IMG/VR virus record: IMGVR_UViG_3300027804_000038
Location: 64,001 to 128,000 of that record
Strand: one strand, 5' to 3'
DNA from: a virus
Lineage: Duplodnaviria > Caudoviricetes
Length of the DNA: 64,000 nt
The notes under the pieces are model-generated. The model searched no databases. It was not told the origin of the DNA and saw nothing but the letters and a program-made list of their open reading frames with translations. The translations under genes and the position numbers were made by a program. Positions 2,961 through 64,000 of this stretch are shown here, piece after piece (the first letter of the stretch is position 1; every line of letters begins with the position of its first letter).

Positions 2961-3680
2961 ATGCAAAATTTTAAAATACTTGGTCCTAATGAAATCGGTA
3001 AGGGTATTCTTATTGAATACGATGCGGGATACGTATCCCCTAAAGAATTTTCTAATGATAAAATTATAAAAGAAAATTTAAACACTACCGATTATTCAAA
3101 ACCTTTTGAATTTTATGCCGTACTCCAAAAGTATGACACACCAAATAGAAATGGTAGAATATACCCCGAAAGAATTCTAAAAAGAGAGTCAGAGAATTAT
3201 ATAAAAAATTATATTAATAGAGGGACTTCTCTATCGGAATTAAACCACCCTGAATCTTCATTAATTGATTTAGATAGAGTTTCACACATCATAACTGAAA
3301 TGTGGTGGGATAAAAATGTTTTACTAGGTAAACTTAGACTTTTAACTTCTCCAGGATTCCATGAAAGAGGAATTGTCTCAACTAAAGGAGACCAAGCCGC
3401 TAATTTACTAAGACAAGGAGTAACACTAGGTATATCATCAAGAGGTGTAGGTTCTTTAAAAAAGAAAGGAGAACAAAATGAAGTTCAAGATGATTTTGAA
3501 TTAATTTGTTTTGATTTAGTATCTTCCCCATCAACACCTGGAGCATATCTTTTTAAAGATGAAAAGGATAGATATAAGTACGAGGAAAATTTAAAAGAAG
3601 AAAATGAATTAAAAGCTCAAAGAGGTATTGGGGATTCTATTGATTTAATGAAAAAACTTTCCGATTATTTATCAAAATAA
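2961..3680 (+). CDS. Prohead core protein protease (T4 gp21-like, S77/U9)
   Basis: Motifs NRNGRIYP, SLSELNHPE (His), GISSRGVGS (Ser), DDFELICFDLVSSPSTPGAY. Confidence 0.95.
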   Translation: MQNFKILGPNEIGKGILIEYDAGYVSPKEFSNDKIIKENLNTTDYSKPFEFYAVLQKYDTPNRNGRIYPERILKRESENYIKNYINRGTSLSELNHPESSLIDLDRVSHIITEMWWDKNVLLGKLRLLTSPGFHERGIVSTKGDQAANLLRQGVTLGISSRGVGSLKKKGEQNEVQDDFELICFDLVSSPSTPGAYLFKDEKDRYKYEENLKEENELKAQRGIGDSIDLMKKLSDYLSK

Positions 3681-55581: not shown

Positions 55582-56643
55582 ATGGCTTTACCAAAAAAAA
55601 TTAAAAAAAATATAAATTTAACTAATCCTAAGACAGGTTTTGCCAGACGAGAAGAATTGGTTGACATTATAAATGAAAATGGTACTTATTTACCTAAATC
55701 AATTCTACATGCCGATTTAGATAGAGGTTTTTTAGATTTTGTAAAAAATGATTTAGAAATATCAACGGACAGTGGAAAAAAAGTTCCTGTAATTGATATT
55801 ATTATTACAACTCAAAATTGGGCACAGTTTACACAAACATGGAATTTTAATGATTTAGATAAAAACGTTTTACCTCCATTTGTAACAACAGTAAGAACCC
55901 CTGAAGTTAAATACGGTACCTTACCATCATTAAGATGGAATATACCTAATAGAAAACAATATTTTTATGCTGCAGTACCAAATTTTAATAATGGTAGAAA
56001 GGGAGTTGATATATACACAATACCACAACCAGTTCCTGTAGATATAAAATATTCAGTTAGGATAGTTTGCAATAGAATGAGAGAATTAAATTCTTTTAAC
56101 AAAAAAGTTATTGAGACATTCGCATCTAGACAAGCATATACTGTTGTTAAAGGTAATTACATCCCAATAATTTTAGATGAAATTCAAGACGAGTCAGTAA
56201 TGGACTTAGAAAAAAGAAAATTGTATATACAGACCTATAATTTTACTCTACAGGGTTTTTTAATTGATGAGAATGAATTTGAAGTGAAGCCTGCGGTTAG
56301 TAGAGCTTTTACAATAATGGAAATTAATACTGGTAAAACTAGGTCTAAAAAACCTAAAGCACAACCTGAAAATATTAATATTATACCTTTTAACATTAAT
56401 TTTCCATTGTCTACAACGGCATTTACCTACACTTTTGAATATAATTCAAACTTAACACAAGACGGGATATCAAACATTTCAAACTACGATGTTTATATTA
56501 ATAACTTGTATTATGGTAGTAATATTCTGAGCAGTACAGGTAATACAATTCAGGTTAACACAAATGATGTTCTAACTATTAATATAACAAAGACAAATGC
56601 TTTAGACCCATCTATATTACAATGGACATCTAAAATAGTTTAA
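55582..56643 (+). CDS. Tail completion/terminator protein (T4 gp15-like)
   Basis: PQPVPVDIKYSVRI, Y.Q.Y.F.L.G.L pattern; precedes sheath. Confidence 0.65.
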   Translation: MALPKKIKKNINLTNPKTGFARREELVDIINENGTYLPKSILHADLDRGFLDFVKNDLEISTDSGKKVPVIDIIITTQNWAQFTQTWNFNDLDKNVLPPFVTTVRTPEVKYGTLPSLRWNIPNRKQYFYAAVPNFNNGRKGVDIYTIPQPVPVDIKYSVRIVCNRMRELNSFNKKVIETFASRQAYTVVKGNYIPIILDEIQDESVMDLEKRKLYIQTYNFTLQGFLIDENEFEVKPAVSRAFTIMEINTGKTRSKKPKAQPENINIIPFNINFPLSTTAFTYTFEYNSNLTQDGISNISNYDVYINNLYYGSNILSSTGNTIQVNTNDVLTINITKTNALDPSILQWTSKIV

Positions 56644-56789
56644 TTTTCACCATAGATATCTTTTTTCTCAGAACAATTTTCAATTATTAAATTTTCTAAA
56701 AATTTATGAATCTTTAGTCCTTTTTTAGTGCAATAGGTTTTTAGTATTTTGTGAGATTCTTCAGATATCTTCAAATTCTTTATTTTCAT
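56640..56789 (-). CDS. Ribbon-helix-helix DNA-binding protein
   Basis: Start moved to ATG 56789: MKIKNLKISEESHKILKTYCTKKGLKIHKFLENLI (beta strand with alternating pattern, two helices, G turn). Confidence 0.65.
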   Translation of the reverse strand: MKIKNLKISEESHKILKTYCTKKGLKIHKFLENLIIENCSEKKDIYGEN

Positions 56790-56824
56790 GGTAGAATTAA
56801 GGCAGAATAAATTCTTACTTATTG

Positions 56825-56874
56825 ATAAATAGATGTGCCACACTAAAATTTTTGCGATTTTTTGCAATATTTAT
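56825..56874. promoter_or_regulatory. Divergent late promoters (RHH gene / sheath) with intervening TTTTTGCRA direct repeat
   Basis: ATAAATA 56825-56831 (35 nt before ATG 56789) and TATTTAT 56868-56874 (35 nt before ATG 56910). Confidence 0.55.
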
Positions 56875-56909: not shown

Positions 56910-59900
56910 ATGGCTACATCAAACAAAGTTTTTGTTTCTCCAGGTGTTTACACATCTGAAAGAGACTTATCATTTGTGGCACAAAGTGTTGGTGTAACAA
57001 CTTTAGGTATTGTTGGGGAGACACAAAAAGGACCCGCTTTTGAACCTATTTTTGTGACTAACTATGATGAGTTCCAATCGTATTTTGGAGGTACCTCACC
57101 TGAAAAATTTGTGAACACGCAAATACCTAAATATGAAGCGGCATATATTGCTAAATCATATTTACAACAATCTAACCAATTATTTGTAACAAGAATATTG
57201 GGGTTATCGGGATATGACGCTGGTCCGTCATGGTCTATTAAAACAATTGCGAATGTTGATTGTAATACAATAGGATTTAACGGTACTGCAACAACATCTT
57301 CATTTACTTTTACAGGAACAAGTGCGTCAACATCATCAATTACACTAACAAGTGTTCCATCCCCAATCTCATCTATTATTAATGATGTCTATACAGAATT
57401 TGATGGAGGAACTTCAAGTATTTCTGAGCAAATTCAAACTCAGTTATTGAATGTTATGAGGTCAACAGGTACTTCTGCAACTTCAATATACTACTTTGGA
57501 GCTATGTCAGGAGCGTCAATAACTGCGGCAATAGGGTCAGGATATACATCACCAACAAATGTTTATTCAGTATCCTCAATTACTGCAGAAACTATTGATT
57601 ACTGTTCAGGTTTAAATGACGCATGGTACTATTCACAGTTTAGTCCCGTTGGTACTACTTCATATTCAGGATTTTCGTTTAATACTTATGTCACTAAATT
57701 AGCTGCTTTAGGTACGCCAGGTCAATATTCAGGTATAGTAACAACTACTGTTAATACTTTTTCAGGTACCCCTTACACTAATTACAGTGATTTAGTAATT
57801 GCAACATTACGTTCAAGAGGTATTACTAATTACAGTTCAACACAATCAGGACCTTTATACCAAGTTAGTGCAACTTCGGCAGTTACTATGGTTTGTACAG
57901 GTTCTTATTCAGGAGTTAGTGAAAATCCGTTTAATACATTTGTAATTTCAGGTGTGACATACCAAGGTTCTAATTTCTCATTTGAGACTTCTTTTGAGAT
58001 TGCTAATTCTAATTATATTACTAAGGTATTTGGTTCAGGTAATTTTGATAAAGACAGAACAGAAGTTCCTTTGTTTGTTGAAGAGCGTTACCAAACCTTA
58101 TTACAATATGGTTATAATAAAGGATATATTAGAGGTTTAAGTTGTTCTTTAGAGTCTTTACCTGAAGCTAGAAACTTAGACACTTCATCAATAGCCAATT
58201 ATTTAGAAAGATATCAAACAGCATTCTCACCATGGGTAGTTTCAGAATTACGTGGTAATAAAGTTTATGAATTGTTTAGATTTGTAACAATATCTGACGG
58301 AGACGCTGCGAACAGAGAAGTTAAAGTTTCTTTAGCAAATATGTCATTTAATAACCAAACATTTGACGTAATAGTTAGAGATTATTATGATAACGACTCA
58401 AATCCTGTGGTACTTGAGAAATTCACTAACTGTACTATGGACCCTGATTTGAATAGTTATATAGCTAAAAAAATCGGTTCGACTGACGGTGAATACGCAA
58501 TACTTTCTAAGTATATAATGGTTGAAATGAACTATGATGCACCGATAGACGCACTTCCATGTGGTTTTGAAGGTTACATTATTAGAACTTATGGAGGAGC
58601 AACTTCACCATTCCCTGTATACAAAACTAAGTATGATTTCCCAGGTGAAGTAATTTATAACCCTCCATTTGGTAACACTAATGGTACTGACGATTCTGTT
58701 ACAAGTTCTGGAGATAATGTTAGAAGAACTTACTTAGGATTCTCAACTTCATTAGGGTTTGATTCTGACTTCTTTGAATATAAAGGTAAACAAGTTCCAA
58801 CTTCTTGGAGTTGTTCAGAACAAGATTACAGTAATTGGGGTGACTTAACTAAAGGTTTCCACATGGATAGTGGAGCAACTGCGGTTACGATATCTTCAAC
58901 ATACTCAACATCAGGTCAATCGGCCTTTGAAGTCGGAGATTCATCATTCTCTCAAGAACCAACAAGTTCAAGCGACCCATATTACAGACTTTATTCTCGT
59001 AAATTCACTGTGTGTGTTTACGGTGGTTTTGACGGATGGGATATCTATAGAGAATACAGAACAAATGAAGATAGATTCATCCTTGGTGAATCAGGATATT
59101 TAGCGGGAGCACAAGCAGGTTGTTCACCTTACACAAACGCAACTGGATGGGGGGCGTTTAAGAGAATCACTGTTGGTGATAACGTAGTTGATTGGGCAAA
59201 TACTGACTATTACGCTTACTTATTAGGTATTAGAAGTTTTGAAAATCCTGAAGTTACTAACATAAACGTTTTAGTTACTCCTGGTATTGACTTTGTTAAT
59301 AACTCAAACTTAACTGAGGCGACTATTGATATGGTTGAAAACGATAGAGCGGATTCAATCTATATTGTAACTAGTCCTGACTTTGACCTATACCAACCAT
59401 CAACTTCTATGGATAACTTAATCTATCCTCAAGAAGCGGTTGATAATTTAGAAACAACAGGTATAGATTCTAACTACACCGCAACTTACTATCCTTGGGT
59501 TCTTACTCGTGATACGGTTAATAACACTCAAATCTATATTCCAGCAACCGCAGAAGTTACAAGAAACTTGGCGTTAACTGACAATATTGCATTCCCTTGG
59601 TTCGCAACTGCGGGATACACAAGAGGTGTTGTAAACGCAATCAGAGCAAGAAAACGTTTAACTCAAGAAGATAGAGATACTCTATACAAAGGAAGAATTA
59701 ACCCGATTGCAACATTCAACGATGTTGGTACTGTAATATGGGGTAATAAAACACTTCAAATTAGAGAGTCGGCTCTTGATAGAATAAATGTTAGAAGATT
59801 GTTGTTACAAGCTCGTAAATTGATTTCAGCGGTGGCTGTAAGATTATTGTTTGAACAAAATGATAACGTAGTTAGACAACAATTTTTAGACTCAGTTAAT

Positions 59901-60089
59901 CCAATATTAGACGCTATTAGAAGAGATAGAGGATTATATGACTTTAGAGTTACCGTACAAAATACACCTGAAGATTTGGATAATAACCAATTAGTTGGTA
60001 AAATTTACATAAAACCAACAAAATCTTTAGAATTTATTGATATTGAATTCTTAATTACTCCTACAGGTGCTAGTTTTGAAGATATCTAA
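56910..60089 (+). CDS. Tail sheath protein (T4 gp18-like) with Ser/Thr-rich insertion
   Basis: SPGVYTSE.DLS, VGETQKGPAFEP, YYPWV, PWFATAGYTRG, RINPI, WGNKTL, LDRINVRRLL. Confidence 0.96.
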   Translation: MATSNKVFVSPGVYTSERDLSFVAQSVGVTTLGIVGETQKGPAFEPIFVTNYDEFQSYFGGTSPEKFVNTQIPKYEAAYIAKSYLQQSNQLFVTRILGLSGYDAGPSWSIKTIANVDCNTIGFNGTATTSSFTFTGTSASTSSITLTSVPSPISSIINDVYTEFDGGTSSISEQIQTQLLNVMRSTGTSATSIYYFGAMSGASITAAIGSGYTSPTNVYSVSSITAETIDYCSGLNDAWYYSQFSPVGTTSYSGFSFNTYVTKLAALGTPGQYSGIVTTTVNTFSGTPYTNYSDLVIATLRSRGITNYSSTQSGPLYQVSATSAVTMVCTGSYSGVSENPFNTFVISGVTYQGSNFSFETSFEIANSNYITKVFGSGNFDKDRTEVPLFVEERYQTLLQYGYNKGYIRGLSCSLESLPEARNLDTSSIANYLERYQTAFSPWVVSELRGNKVYELFRFVTISDGDAANREVKVSLANMSFNNQTFDVIVRDYYDNDSNPVVLEKFTNCTMDPDLNSYIAKKIGSTDGEYAILSKYIMVEMNYDAPIDALPCGFEGYIIRTYGGATSPFPVYKTKYDFPGEVIYNPPFGNTNGTDDSVTSSGDNVRRTYLGFSTSLGFDSDFFEYKGKQVPTSWSCSEQDYSNWGDLTKGFHMDSGATAVTISSTYSTSGQSAFEVGDSSFSQEPTSSSDPYYRLYSRKFTVCVYGGFDGWDIYREYRTNEDRFILGESGYLAGAQAGCSPYTNATGWGAFKRITVGDNVVDWANTDYYAYLLGIRSFENPEVTNINVLVTPGIDFVNNSNLTEATIDMVENDRADSIYIVTSPDFDLYQPSTSMDNLIYPQEAVDNLETTGIDSNYTATYYPWVLTRDTVNNTQIYIPATAEVTRNLALTDNIAFPWFATAGYTRGVVNAIRARKRLTQEDRDTLYKGRINPIATFNDVGTVIWGNKTLQIRESALDRINVRRLLLQARKLISAVAVRLLFEQNDNVVRQQFLDSVNPILDAIRRDRGLYDFRVTVQNTPEDLDNNQLVGKIYIKPTKSLEFIDIEFLITPTGASFEDI

Positions 60090-60107
60090 TAAAAACAAGA
60101 TAAAAAT

Positions 60108-60134
60108 AAAAACCCTCAGAAATGGGGGTTTTTT
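60108..60134 (+). terminator. Intrinsic terminator after sheath gene
   Basis: AAAAACCCTCA-gaaa-TGGGGGTTTTTT, GNRA loop. Confidence 0.85.
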
Positions 60135-60144
60135 GTTTTTAATA

Positions 60145-60151
60145 TATTTAT
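60145..60151 (+). promoter_or_regulatory. Putative late promoter TATTTAT
   Basis: 4 nt before ATG 60156, right after terminator. Confidence 0.55.
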
Positions 60152-60155
60152 GAAT

Positions 60156-60974
60156 ATGAAATTAATTATTGTTGAAGGATTTAGAGATGAAATAACCCCA
60201 GACATGAAGTATTATGCTTTTGATTGGGATGATAATATTATGTTCATGCCAACCAAAATAATTTTAAAAACCGAAGATGGTAGTGAAATTGGTATGGGGA
60301 CCGAAGATTTTGCCGAACATAGGGTAGATATTGGTAAAAATCCATTTGAATATAAAGGTGAAACAATTGTAGGATTTGCTGAAAATCCTTTTAGGAATTT
60401 TGGGGTGTCTGGAGATAAAAAATTTATAATTGATTCATTATTATCTAAAACAGGTCCAGCTTGGGATGATTTTGTTGAGTGTATTAACGGTGGTTCAATA
60501 TTCTCAATAATAACTGCTAGAGGACATTCACCAGAGACTTTAAAACAGTCAGTTAAAAACTTAATTGAGGTTAACTATAAAGGTCTTTCAAAAAAAGAAT
60601 TAGTTAAAAATTTAAGAAAATATAGAGAAATATATGGTGAAGAGGACATGTCAGATTTAGAACTTATAAATGAGTATCTTGATATGTGTAAATTTTATCC
60701 TGTAACGTATGGAGAAGGTTCCGCACAAAATCCTGAAGAAGGCAAAGTTAAGGCAATTAAAGAATTCTCAAAGTACGTGATGGAATTAGCGAAAGAATTA
60801 CACCAAACACCTTATTTTAAGAATGATGTATCTAACAATTTTATACCACAAATAGGATTTTCAGATGATGATTTAAGAAATTTAGCTAAGATGAAAAGTG
60901 CTTTAAAAGATGACCCAGAAAATATTGTACAATTATATTCAACACATGGAGGAGAAAAAAAGAAGTATGATTAA
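60156..60974 (+). CDS. HAD-superfamily phosphatase-like protein
   Basis: YAFDWDDNI (DxD), IITARGH, GKVKA, GFSDDD; start moved to ATG 60156. Confidence 0.7.
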   Translation: MKLIIVEGFRDEITPDMKYYAFDWDDNIMFMPTKIILKTEDGSEIGMGTEDFAEHRVDIGKNPFEYKGETIVGFAENPFRNFGVSGDKKFIIDSLLSKTGPAWDDFVECINGGSIFSIITARGHSPETLKQSVKNLIEVNYKGLSKKELVKNLRKYREIYGEEDMSDLELINEYLDMCKFYPVTYGEGSAQNPEEGKVKAIKEFSKYVMELAKELHQTPYFKNDVSNNFIPQIGFSDDDLRNLAKMKSALKDDPENIVQLYSTHGGEKKKYD

Positions 60975-61048
60975 TAAATTTAACTGGTCTTAATGCAATA
61001 TTCATTTAAAAAAACTTCAAAGTAAATAGAAAAATTTTAAAACGATAC

Positions 61049-61055
61049 TATTTAT
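61049..61055 (+). promoter_or_regulatory. Putative late promoter TATTTAT (tail tube)
   Basis: 35 nt before ATG 61091. Confidence 0.55.
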
Positions 61056-61090
61056 ATAAAAAATAAAAGAGAAATTAAAAACAAAATAAT

Positions 61091-61579
61091 ATGGCTGATT
61101 TACTAATGAAAATGCCCATACCTTATGAACCAAAAAAACAAAACAGGTTTATTTTAAGGTTTCCTTCTGAACTTGGAATTAACGAGTGGTTTGTTGAGTC
61201 GGCATCAAGACCAAAAATTACCATCGCTTCTAATGCAATTCCTTTCTTGAACACTGAAAGATATGTTGCTGGTAAGTATACATGGAACACTATTTCAGTT
61301 ACTTTCCGCGACCCAATCGGTCCTTCAGCCGCTCAGGCACTTATGGAATGGGTTCGTTTACACGCTGAATCTGTAACAGGACGTATGGGTTACGCTGCGG
61401 GATACAAAAAAGACATTGATTTAGAAATGTTAGACCCAACAGGAGTTGTAGTTGAAAAATGGAAATTAATTGGTACTTTTTTAACTGATGTTGACTTTAG
61501 TTCAGTCGCTTATACATCCGATGATTTAGTTAAAATCACCGCAACATTAAGACCTGACTATTGCGTATTATTATACTAA
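61091..61579 (+). CDS. Tail tube protein (T4 gp19-like)
   Basis: RP.I...IPFLN..RYVAGK.TW..I.VTF.D, MLDPTG.VVEKW.L.G.F. Confidence 0.92.
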   Translation: MADLLMKMPIPYEPKKQNRFILRFPSELGINEWFVESASRPKITIASNAIPFLNTERYVAGKYTWNTISVTFRDPIGPSAAQALMEWVRLHAESVTGRMGYAAGYKKDIDLEMLDPTGVVVEKWKLIGTFLTDVDFSSVAYTSDDLVKITATLRPDYCVLLY

Positions 61580-61602
61580 TAATAAAATAAAATACTATTT
61601 AC

Positions 61603-61628
61603 AAATCCACACTTGTTGTGGATTTTTT
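61603..61628 (+). terminator. Intrinsic terminator after tail tube gene
   Basis: AAATCCACA-cttgt-TGTGGATTTTTT. Confidence 0.75.
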
Positions 61629-61643
61629 ATTTAAAATATAATT

Positions 61644-62396
61644 ATGAACGAAAATATTGCGGGACAAGATAATTTTAGTTTACCACATGATGTGGTATTG
61701 TTACCATCACAAGGTAAATTTTACAAAAATAAGAAAAAAAGTGTTAAAGTTGGTTTTTTGACTGCCTCTGATGAAAATTTGTTAGCTAACGTTGGTAAAA
61801 TTACAGGTGAACAGTTATTATCACAACTCATTAGAAATAAATTATATGAACCTGAATTAAATCCAAATGATTTACTTGAAGGTGATATTGAGGCGATTTT
61901 ATTATTTTTAAGAAATACTTCTTTTGGACCTGAATATAATTTTTCACTGACTGACCCAGAAACAGGTCAACCTTTTAAGACTTCTGTGGTATTAGATGAA
62001 TTAAATTTTATTAAATCAAAAATTGAACCTTCATCTGACGGAACATTTGAAACTAAGTTACCTAAAACTGGCTCTGTTATTAAATTAAAACCGCTAACTT
62101 ACGGTGAAAAAATAGAAATTGAAAAAATGGTTGATTCATATCCACAAGGTATGGTGGCTCCTAAAGTTACTTGGAGATTAATGAAACAAATCATTGAAGT
62201 AAACGGTGACCAATCTAAGGAAGTAATTTCCAAATTTATTGAATCTATGCCAATTATGGATTCAAAATACATTACAAACTTTTTAAGTGAGAATGAACCA
62301 AGAATTGATTTAATGAGAGAAATTACAGCCCCGTCAGGAAAAAAGGTTAATGCGAGAGTATCCTTTGGGGCGGAGTTTTTTCGTCCTTTCTTCTGA
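61644..62396 (+). CDS. Tail assembly chaperone / baseplate hub protein (T4 gp26-like)
   Basis: V.LPSQGKFY, LTASDENLL, LL.GD.EAIL.FLR..SFG, ends in FF; between tube and tape measure. Confidence 0.78.
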   Translation: MNENIAGQDNFSLPHDVVLLPSQGKFYKNKKKSVKVGFLTASDENLLANVGKITGEQLLSQLIRNKLYEPELNPNDLLEGDIEAILLFLRNTSFGPEYNFSLTDPETGQPFKTSVVLDELNFIKSKIEPSSDGTFETKLPKTGSVIKLKPLTYGEKIEIEKMVDSYPQGMVAPKVTWRLMKQIIEVNGDQSKEVISKFIESMPIMDSKYITNFLSENEPRIDLMREITAPSGKKVNARVSFGAEFFRPFF

Positions 62397-62544
62397 TTAT
62401 ATAGAAAATCTATTAGACCAATACTATCTTATGGGGAAATTTCTAAACACCTCATACTCTGATTTTTTAATTATACCAACATACCAAAGAAACTTTTTGG
62501 TTAATAAAATAATTGAAAGAAATACGCCAAAAACAGATAGTTAA
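62350..62544 (+). CDS. gp51-like chaperone C-terminal part, probably reached by +1 frameshift from the upstream gene
   Basis: LLDQYYLMGKFLNTSYSDFLIIPTYQRNFLV resembles gpT/gp51 chaperone tails; +1 frame overlap across TTT TTT C at 62376-62382. Confidence 0.6.
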   Translation: MREYPLGRSFFVLSSDYIENLLDQYYLMGKFLNTSYSDFLIIPTYQRNFLVNKIIERNTPKTDS

Positions 62545-62545
62545 T

Positions 62546-62552
62546 TATTTAT
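62546..62552 (+). promoter_or_regulatory. Putative late promoter TATTTAT (tape measure)
   Basis: 16 nt before ATG 62569. Confidence 0.55.
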
Positions 62553-62568
62553 ATTAAAAATATAATAT

Positions 62569-64000
62569 ATGTTTTTAGGCCCACCAGACCAATCCTCTTC
62601 AGAGTTATCAGGTAAAGATTTACTAAAAACCCTAACAGGGTTTAGAGCCGCTGAAGATTTGGCGTCGTCCTTTACAAGTGCTTTAGGGATTGTATCTGAA
62701 ATAGATAAAGAATTCGCAAAAGTTGTCTCAAAAATGGGAGTGGGTGATACCATGACCCAAGCTATTAAAAAGAATTTAGCTGAAGGTGCATTTGAGGCAC
62801 TTAAACTTGGGGGTTCTTTTGAAGACGCTGAGAAAATACAACAAAATTTTTTAGATACGTATGGTAGAAATGTAGTACTACAAGGTAAATTAACGGGAGA
62901 CATCCTTGCAACCTCTAAAGTAACAGGTGTTTTGGGTGATGCGTTAATGTCGTCATTTGCAGATGCTGGTATGTCAGCAAAAGATATTACAAAAGAAATG
63001 TCAACAGTAGTAGACGTTTCTAATAGTTTAGGGGTTAACGCTCAGGCAGTTTCTAGTAAGGTCACAAGTAATTTAGAAAAATTAAACAGATACGGATTCA
63101 CCAATGGGGTAGAAGGTTTAGCTAAAATGGCCGCTAGAGCGACAACCCTTAGGGTGGATATGGATACCACTTTTAATTTGGCCGAAAAATTATATTCACC
63201 TGAATCGGCAATTGATTTAGCTAGTTCATTACAAAGACTTGGAGCAGCATCAACAGAATTAACGGACCCATTAAGATTAATGGATTTGGCTCAAAATAAT
63301 GTACCTGAGTTACAAAATCAACTTGGGGAAATGTTTAAAACATACACATATTTTGATGAAAAAACTAAAAAGTTCCAAATTATGCCGAACGCAAGAAGGC
63401 AGTTAAGGGAAATTAGTACTGAATTAAGTATACCTATTGACCAAATAGAAAAGTTTGCTTTTGGAACTGCGGATTTAGATAAAAAATTATCTGAAATATC
63501 TTTTGGTGGGTTAGACATTGGGGAAGACACTAAAGAGATGATTGCTAATATGGCGACATTAGGTGAAGGAGGAGAGTATGAAATTACAACTAAAAATGGA
63601 GATGTACAAACCTTAGATAAATTTCTACAGTCATATCAAGGTAAAGAAGACGAATTAAAAAAATATTTTAAAGACCAAGAAGCTGAAGCGGCAAAAACAC
63701 CTGAAGAAAAAATGAGAGAAATTGCAACAAGTCAACTTGGTAAACTAGGTGAAATTGAGGCATCATCCAAAGCTCTTGCCGCAGCATTTGGTTTAAGTGT
63801 TGAAAAATCAGGCGCGGGAGATAAATTATTAGAAGCTGCAAAATCAGAATACGCCTCTCAAGCTGACACACTAATGAAGGCTATTGGACCTGACTCTGAA
63901 ATAGTTAAAGGGTTATCAAATATTGGTAAAGACATACCTCAGTTAATTGAAAAATTAACATCAGGTGATTTTATGGGTGCTTTAGATATGTTAAAAACAT
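62569..64000 (+). CDS. Tape measure protein, 3'-truncated (absent from ORF track)
   Basis: ATG 62569, frame open to window end (MFLGPPDQ...DMLKT); helical Ala/Gly/Leu-rich; follows tube and chaperones; late motif upstream. Confidence 0.82.
   Translation, partial: MFLGPPDQSSSELSGKDLLKTLTGFRAAEDLASSFTSALGIVSEIDKEFAKVVSKMGVGDTMTQAIKKNLAEGAFEALKLGGSFEDAEKIQQNFLDTYGRNVVLQGKLTGDILATSKVTGVLGDALMSSFADAGMSAKDITKEMSTVVDVSNSLGVNAQAVSSKVTSNLEKLNRYGFTNGVEGLAKMAARATTLRVDMDTTFNLAEKLYSPESAIDLASSLQRLGAASTELTDPLRLMDLAQNNVPELQNQLGEMFKTYTYFDEKTKKFQIMPNARRQLREISTELSIPIDQIEKFAFGTADLDKKLSEISFGGLDIGEDTKEMIANMATLGEGGEYEITTKNGDVQTLDKFLQSYQGKEDELKKYFKDQEAEAAKTPEEKMREIATSQLGKLGEIEASSKALAAAFGLSVEKSGAGDKLLEAAKSEYASQADTLMKAIGPDSEIVKGLSNIGKDIPQLIEKLTSGDFMGALDMLKT

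Follow-up and report, generated by a model that had tools for sequence, protein, structure and literature searches.

A Predicted +1 Frameshift at the End of a T4-Type Tail Assembly Chaperone Gene in an Uncultured Freshwater Jumbo Phage

In phage lambda, gpG and gpGT are encoded immediately upstream of the tape measure gene, between it and the tube gene, and a −1 shift near the 3′-end, by tandem slippage at the conserved slippery run G_GGA_AAG, lengthens the short product into an overlapping coding frame without a start of its own; this shift and those that correspond to it in long-tailed phages (Levin 1993; Xu, Hendrix and Duda 2004) have been reviewed (PMC5009743). Forward frameshifts are known in other chaperone families, with 350 annotated cases in the SEA-PHAGES set, mostly in chaperone genes, and one in the tail chaperone gene of HSTV-2 (PMC5009743). 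Here, we describe a gene near the right end of a 64,000-nucleotide window (the whole stretch of DNA analyzed, positions 64,001 to 128,000 of IMG/VR record IMGVR_UViG_3300027804_000038), which belongs to a complete virus genome of 293,850 bp from freshwater metagenomes, that of an uncultured jumbo phage (~294 kb). The gene, at 61644-62396, encodes a 250-residue protein of the T4 gp26/gp51 family, and comparison of its sequence across relatives indicates that a +1 ribosomal slip at its end very probably yields, in addition, a 299-residue long form of a T4-type chaperone.

The closest described proteins are those of T4, in which gp26 (208 residues) consists entirely of the Pfam domain PF12322 and ends in ..KEFFELL, and gp51 (249 residues) matches PF12322 over residues 1-201 and then continues for ~48 more residues. 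The chaperone link between gp26 and gp51 was reportedly made by Vladimirov, Gautam and Davidson (Virology 2022;566:9-15), a study known to us through the papers that cite it. Those papers describe isoforms of the tail assembly chaperone (TAC) called TAC-N and TAC-NC and poly-T −1 signals in the TAC-N genes of T4-like phages (PMC12846349, citing Vladimirov 2022), as well as some T4-like phages that dispense with frameshifting and have a short gene plus a longer fusion gene (PMC10885494, citing Vladimirov 2022). By these accounts, the chaperone role of the family, the gp26/gp51 correspondence, and frameshifting within the family are already published. A preliminary description of the window, which proposed that gp26/gp51 homologues behave here as a G/GT pair, is supported, but its idea was not new. 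The features of the locus, in window coordinates, are as follows.

61644-62396, + strand: short chaperone form (TAC-N, gp26-like), 250 residues, frame 0, TGA stop at 62394-62396
62376-62382, + strand: slippery run TTT TTT C, with a proposed P-site tRNA-Phe shift from UUU (62379-62381) to UUC (62380-62382)
62383-62544, + strand: +1-frame extension, predicted C-terminal tail of the long form (TAC-NC, gp51-tail-like), 53 codons plus TAA
62385-62396, + strand: dual-coding overlap CCT TTC TTC TGA, read as RPFF and the stop in frame 0 and as LSSD in the +1 frame
62364-62401, + strand: near-invariant nucleotide island of 38 nucleotides (recoding site plus dual-coding overlap), from the alignment of 45 distinct sequences
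62367-62370, + strand: GGGG at a synonymous site, possible upstream stimulator, with a GGG Gly codon in 45/45

The +1 frame beyond the chaperone stop codon

The 250-residue protein matches PF12322 (T4_baseplate, the T4 gp26/gp51 family) over residues 31-235 with 40.5 bits (cut-off 24.5, E = 3.1e-10), a match that is reproduced on the genome DNA, and it also matches phrog_150, 'baseplate hub'; T4 gp26 and gp51 themselves score 8.8e-64 and 3.9e-52 against PF12322. A large protein collection holds 4047 relatives (protein clusters), nearly all exactly 250 residues long. The complete genome contains a single PF12322 gene, and therefore a long form could be obtained only by recoding.

The gene ends GAG TTT TTT CGT CCT TTC TTC TGA, and the +1 frame, read from GTC (62383), runs to a TAA at 62542-62544, so that translation with one quadruplet step gives a 299-residue product, P0121, with the junction ...SFGAEFF|VLSSDY.... 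The gene end, the TTTTTTC run, a GGAG at 62372-62375, and the 53-codon tail were all correctly read in the preliminary description. We compared the window with 80 related loci from IMG/VR (58-75% identity), giving 81 sequences with 45 distinct junctions. The +1 frame remains open for 46-57 codons beyond the stop in all 81 loci. Among the 45 distinct sequences, stops fall within the next 44 codons in none for the +1 frame, in 42 for the +2 frame, and in all 45 for frame 0. Synonymous changes make up 30% of codon differences in the +1 frame versus 7-9% in the other frames, and the entropies of the three codon positions in the tail (0.94/0.69/1.42) have the same shape as those of the upstream gene. 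Judged by these comparisons, the tail is evolving as a protein in the +1 frame. Its alignment in close relatives follows the pattern LSSDY...LLD.YY...SYSDF..IP.YQR.YL..KIIE, with S3, S4, P32, and R36 invariant. Within the dual-coding overlap, TTC TTC is present in 45/45 and the third base of CCT/GTT does not vary, because the Ser-Ser of the +1 product is invariant. Searches of the tail against Pfam and PHROGs gave no family match, and no in-frame fusion carrying the P0121 tail was found among 5.8 billion proteins by a word-based search, to which distant fusions such as gp51 are out of reach. Independent metagenome DNA contigs from other studies carry the T6 run unchanged and without an indel, and therefore the arrangement is not an assembly error.

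Could the tail instead be a separate gene with its own start, either the ATG at 62350 or the TTG within TTT GGG G, so that a free peptide of ~62-64 residues is made and no fusion? The window does have that ATG, which opens a 64-residue open reading frame (ORF); the +1-frame TTG, at −29, is present in 33 of the 45 distinct sequences; and the host apparently has no need of a Shine-Dalgarno sequence. Yet an ATG occurs at the homologous position in only 1/45, the TTG is lacking in 12/45, and four of the 45 lack any ATG, GTG, or TTG over the stretch that begins at the previous +1-frame stop and reaches five codons beyond the stop of frame 0. In 5 of the 81 loci the +1 ORF is entirely without ATG, and no start position is common to all 45 distinct sequences. 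In relatives L041 and L061-64, a TAG closes the +1 frame until just two codons ahead of the T run, and therefore entry into the +1 frame must take place within A TTT TTT CGN CCT TTC TTC TGA. Moreover, T4 gp51 carries what appears to be the homologous tail fused in frame. A separate gene is thus highly improbable. The statement in the preliminary description that the extension lacks a well-placed start needs qualifying, in that the ATG at 62350 exists, but it holds in that this ATG is shared by a single relative and no start is conserved; a conserved independent ATG for the downstream ORF was looked for in the relatives and was not found.

A separate product would also result if ribosomes terminated at the TGA and re-initiated shortly after it in the +1 frame, as in translational coupling, and the two frames do overlap at the stop, as they often do in coupled genes. 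Against it, most relatives have no start at or just after the stop, where the +1 codons are GAT, AAT, GAG, or GAA followed by TAT, and the invariant TTC TTC before the stop indicates that selection on the protein of the +1 frame already acts there. We regard re-initiation as scarcely credible.

The proposed slip site and its possible stimulators

As the preliminary description anticipated, the slippery run is conserved along with the phase of the extension: TTTTTTC occurs in 44 of the 45 distinct relatives and the TTT_C of its second codon in every one. The two Phe codons of the site are TTT in 44/45 and 45/45, and elsewhere in the gene TTT and TTC interchange freely. Arg is encoded at the next position by CGN in every case, the third base being any of the four, and AGR does not occur, so that the C of UUU_C is retained; this requirement, as well as slow decoding in the A site, could account for the constancy of CGN. 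The conserved island is visible even in sequencing coverage, where contig depth in four metagenomes climbs from ~7 to 100-155 over 62359-62412 and nowhere else, since for many diverged relatives the match is limited to these 38 nucleotides.

We propose that translation of 61644-62396 yields the 250-residue short form (TAC-N) of a T4-type TAC and that, in a minority of ribosomes, the tRNA-Phe on the second UUU (62379-62381), with CGU awaiting in the A site, would slip forward by one base onto UUC (62380-62382). Decoding would then continue GUC CUU UCU UCU GAU... to the TAA at 62542, and the result would be the 299-residue long form (TAC-NC), ending in a 53-residue tail apparently related to the C-terminus of gp51. 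The slip from UUU to UUC would be a gain in pairing, from wobble to Watson-Crick. We infer that the shift is ribosomal, in the +1 direction, and of low efficiency.

Two described +1 systems resemble this site. In bacteria, +1 shifts occur readily on UUU_Ynn, and influenza PA-X has its +1 site at UCC_UUU_CGU (PMC5009743). The window shares the core UUU_CGU with the influenza A site (PMC5009743, PMC3498833), with UUU_CGN in 45/45 relatives; common to both are the passage of the P-site tRNA-Phe from wobble to Watson-Crick pairing and independence from a downstream structure. They differ in organism and translation system and in the upstream codon, which is GAR or UUU here and not UCC, and the rare CGU is thought to slow decoding in influenza, whereas CGT is not especially rare in this phage. 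The prfB gene (release factor 2, CUU_UGA) shares the single P-site tRNA that slips by +1 and an upstream G-rich element, for which the counterpart here would be the GGGG invariant in this clade. In prfB, the A site holds a stop codon and not CGN, and a Shine-Dalgarno element lies 3 nucleotides upstream; at that spacing the window has GGAG, with the GGGG 5-8 nucleotides upstream, and this phage gives no sign of Shine-Dalgarno use in its genes. The conserved GGG is a Gly codon nine codons before the stop, and GGG accounts for only ~11% of Gly codons in the window.

Several observations weigh against this slip or against particular parts of it. The GGAG at 62372-62375, put forward in the preliminary description as a prfB-like stimulator, occurs in only 21 of the 45 relatives and does not qualify as a conserved element; the GGGG at 62367-62370 is invariant in this clade instead, but not in the immuto-like clade introduced below. 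A Shine-Dalgarno-like role of the GGGG is itself uncertain, because the window's genes are without Shine-Dalgarno leaders. No conserved RNA structure was found downstream of the site (consensus −0.63 kcal/mol, no covariation, z −0.47). Codon use in the window is 6.9 per thousand for CGT and 3.0 for GTC, the incoming +1 codon, so that CGT is not the rarer of the two and a simple hungry-codon model is not supported here. Finally, the first UUU of T6C could be the shift codon instead, with an identical product, and in three immuto-like sequences with TTT CTA TGG a slip is possible at the first UUU only; the exact slip codon may differ between clades.

Two other positions in the overlap were considered as shift sites and rejected. 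CCU_U re-pairs poorly and is broken by the GTT variants, and UUC_U at the stop likewise re-pairs poorly.

Distant lineages, probable slip direction, and the probable T4 counterpart

The same layout recurs far outside the freshwater clade. Three distant cultured relatives (24-30% identity) have the same gene order, with a +1 frame filling the gap to the tape measure gene: Streptococcus phage GXN1, in which the site reads TTC TTT CGT; Listeria phage LIS04 of the SP-15 group, TTT TTT AGT; and Flavobacterium phage immuto, TTT CTT TGG. A scan with the immuto protein gave a second clade of 62 distinct loci, only ~25% identical, that have TTT YTN TGG throughout (one with TAC for TGG); where a locus extends far enough to be read to the end, its +1 frame stays open for 76-101 codons. 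Some immuto-like relatives have CTT_T at the aligned codon. The uncultured 484-kb phage LR756508 has AAC TTT CTA and a +1 tail. GXN1 and LR756508 thus share UUU_C, and the sites of the immuto clade have UUU_Y. A viral-contig scan for GXN1 relatives returned only one partial locus. The tails of all lineages align on a core of Y/F-S-x-x-D/T followed by M/I-P-x-W/Y-x-R-x-F/Y. In the public records of GXN1, immuto, LIS04, and LR756508, the +1 tail is unannotated or is in part called a 'hypothetical protein', and the chaperone is named 'baseplate hub' or 'baseplate protein'.

Xanthomonas phage XacN1 (AP018399.1, locus ~3040-3300) has GCT TTT TTT ATT, a perfect T_TTT_TTT at the homologous Phe-Phe codons, and its tail lies in the −1 frame. 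This tail is annotated as a separate 'predicted ORF' (ORF316). The arrangement in XacN1 probably represents an unannotated −1 frameshift, to judge from the sequence of the site. The preliminary description had treated a variable phase among homologues as evidence against frameshifting, a criterion that turns out not to be apt: the phase does differ in XacN1, but with a matching T7 at the same Phe-Phe codons, which supports recoding. The phase varies, yet the slippery run suits the direction each time, as recoding predicts and unlike what is expected of an independently initiated gene, which would leave both the invariant UUU_C and the T7/−1 switch of XacN1 unexplained. The lambda-type −1 heptamer X_XXY_YYZ does not describe these sites, the extension being +1 in 81 + 62 loci and −1 in XacN1 only. 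The preliminary proposal of a programmed +1 shift on TTT TTT C giving a fusion of ~299 residues thus gains support from 45 + 62 distinct relatives and five distant phages.

The variety of sites also bears on two other routes into the same frame. RNA polymerase might drop one U on T6, so that some mRNAs encode the 299-residue protein directly, a product identical to that of the +1 slip and indistinguishable from it by sequence. Efficient polymerase slippage usually needs 7-9 or more residues, for which T6 is short. The T6 homopolymer is nonetheless present in 44/45 close relatives, and poly-T/poly-A runs are known polymerase slippage sites (PMC5009743). The +1 layout, on the other hand, is kept where only TTC TTT C or AAC TTT C is present (L006, GXN1, LR756508), and many immuto-like phages have TTT CTT T; in addition, one contig from an RNA library that covers 62346-62610 has T6 with no indel, although contigs hide rare variants and the library may have contained DNA. 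Transcriptional slippage is, on this evidence, unlikely. A −2 ribosomal slip on T6, with tRNA-Phe moving from 62379-62381 to 62377-62379, would reach the same frame and give 300 residues with an extra Phe (...AEFFFVLSS...). Re-pairing on U6 would be perfect, and −2 shifts on U-rich sites are known. The same relatives with TTC TTT C or AAC TTT C would be unable to re-pair and still keep the layout, however, and no downstream structure such as commonly promotes backward slips was found, making a −2 slip very unlikely. Since L006, GXN1, and LR756508 have only (C)TTT_C, where −2 re-pairing and polymerase slippage are both implausible, a +1 slip of a single tRNA is favored.

The link between the tail and gp51 is modest in strength. 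Over its whole length, a profile of predicted fusions aligns with one built from 91 gp51 relatives (E 0.0027). For the tail profile that combines this clade with three distant fusions (48 sequences), hhalign against the gp51 tail gives E 0.004 and a score of 18.1, versus 9.5 +/- 2.3 after column shuffling, with 0/200 shuffles reaching 18.1. For the profile of five lineages (105 sequences), E is 0.0014 and the score 21.3, versus 9.7 +/- 2.5 after shuffling, with 0/150 shuffles reaching 21.3. We used hhalign in local mode, as global mode gave a 7-column alignment without meaning. The alignment is collinear from the FF junction, but its hhalign probability is just 8-17%, and this modest statistic counts against the correspondence; plain hidden Markov model searches of tail or fusion profiles versus T4 gp26/gp51 produced nothing useful. 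The 'gp51-like' label that the preliminary description gave the tail is thus supported weakly (profile-profile E = 0.0014-0.004, with no shuffle reaching the score). The Pfam model PF28602 occurs on gp51 relatives.

This modest but consistent evidence suggests that gp26 is the counterpart of the short form and gp51 that of the long form. With T4 the locus shares the PF12322 family, a short form that ends at a conserved ..EFF.. like the ..KEFFELL of gp26, and a predicted long form whose tail of ~50 residues aligns weakly with that of gp51. It differs in that T4 devotes two separate genes to the two forms, whereas this phage has one gene and needs recoding; in that the T4 chaperones lie in the hub cluster, whereas the order here is the lambda-like tube, chaperone, and tape measure; and in that the poly-T signals of T4-like phages are described as −1 (PMC12846349), whereas the shift here would be +1 on UUU_C.

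The general picture of these chaperones is unchanged and already published. Two points may be new: that several large lineages would shift by +1 on a site as small as UUU_CGN, and that one homologous codon pair flips between +1 and −1. We suggest tentatively, as a possibility somewhat short of an even chance, that one Phe-Phe pair is recoded both ways: by +1 on UUU_C(GN) in deep lineages, comprising the freshwater jumbo-phage clade, immuto-like Flavobacterium phages, SP-15/LIS04-like phages, GXN1, and the 484-kb megaphage; by −1 on U7 in XacN1 and many T4-like phages; and not at all in T4, with its two genes. If this is true and the 2022 paper covers only −1 and two-gene forms, the +1 lineages would constitute undescribed, abundant minimal UUU_CGN sites in bacteria, and the family could serve to study what decides the direction of a slip. 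With regard to recoding, thousands of environmental phages would have a short, clean +1 signal with no downstream structure and the same core as influenza PA-X, whose relatives flip to −1 simply through T7 instead of T6C, a natural series with which the determinants of slip direction and efficiency could be tested in bacteria where Shine-Dalgarno pairing plays little part. As for annotation, the family goes by 'baseplate hub' in public records, and the long form is missing from those of immuto, LIS04/SP-15, GXN1, and XacN1.

The chaperone protein and its genomic setting

The AlphaFold model of the short form (predicted local distance difference test score, pLDDT, 88) matches only its own family among viral models. 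Its best matches in the PDB are to small tail assembly chaperones of phages, namely 3fgx (Z 6.6), 3klu (Z 5.8), HK97 2ob9 (Z 5.2), and 5ir0 (Z 4.2); each spans ~90 residues (2ob9: 94 residues, Foldseek probability 0.90), and all lie below Z 8, where chance arrangements are common. The 3klu protein is YqbN, which we take to be an XkdN-like chaperone. The matches fall on either residues 8-103 or residues ~132-223, with different solved chaperones for each, and this modeling suggests that the short form consists of two tandem chaperone-like domains at these positions. Part of the model resembles the HK97 tail assembly chaperone (2ob9), within the limits of that score; the protein differs from lambda gpG in being twice as long, with apparently two chaperone-like domains, and no sequence similarity to gpG/gpT is detectable. 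The mechanisms differ as well, a −1 tandem slip in lambda and, as proposed, a single-tRNA +1 slip here. By analogy with lambda G/GT, we infer that the common N-terminal part would coat the tape measure and the tail would recruit the tube protein. A predicted complex of the tube protein with the 53-residue tail had a score of 0.00, which is uninformative either way.

The zinc-ribbon cysteines of T4 gp26/gp51 are another point of difference. At the places aligned with their CxxC pairs (residues ~100-110 and 228-236), the short form has no Cys, and TDPETG and APSGKK are found instead; LIS04, GXN1, and LR756508 retain a CxxC near the C-terminus. The freshwater clade as a whole seems to have lost metal binding and kept the fold, pLDDT being above 90 in these parts of the model. 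Because that entire clade is without CxxC, the motif is probably not essential to the PF12322 family.

At the right end of the window, the + strand carries, in order, the sheath gene, a 274-residue gene, the tube gene, the PF12322 gene, the start-less +1 ORF, and the presumed tape measure gene. The neighbors are as follows.

56910-60089, + strand: tail sheath gene, 1059 residues (PF04984, PF17482, phrog_23 at 1.7e-56)
60150-60974, + strand: 274-residue gene between sheath and tube
61091-61579, + strand: tail tube gene (phrog_4542, 9e-28; weak match to PF06841 gp19)
62569-64000, + strand: beginning of the presumed tape measure gene (positional assignment), still open where the window ends

The gap between the TAA of the +1 ORF and the next gene start (62569) is 25 nucleotides. 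The presumed tape measure has no family match in Pfam or PHROGs, and phages immuto and LIS04 have an annotated tape measure gene at the equivalent place; recurrence of the gene order in these two phages bears out the preliminary placement of the pair between tube and tape measure, like the G/GT chaperones.

The match of the sheath protein to its family is confined to its last ~290 residues, the first ~770 being Ser/Thr-rich and unassigned. Just 5′ of the sheath gene, a 75-residue ORF (56640-56867) lies on the − strand between two + strand structural genes. The 274-residue gene had no match in Pfam or PHROGs, and it is absent from the same place in immuto and LIS04, in which the tube gene directly follows the sheath gene. 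A search for tRNA genes in the window returned none, and a blastn search of 60000-64000 against a phage collection gave no match.

The G+C content is 29.5%. The + strand genes of the window have A/T-rich leaders with no Shine-Dalgarno motifs, several with TATTTAT-like motifs, which suggests a host with Shine-Dalgarno-independent initiation, for instance one of the Bacteroidota. DNA near-identical to 61644-62700 is present in freshwater, estuary, and lake metagenomes from 13 studies dated 2017-2025, and the phage lineage of the window is therefore widespread.

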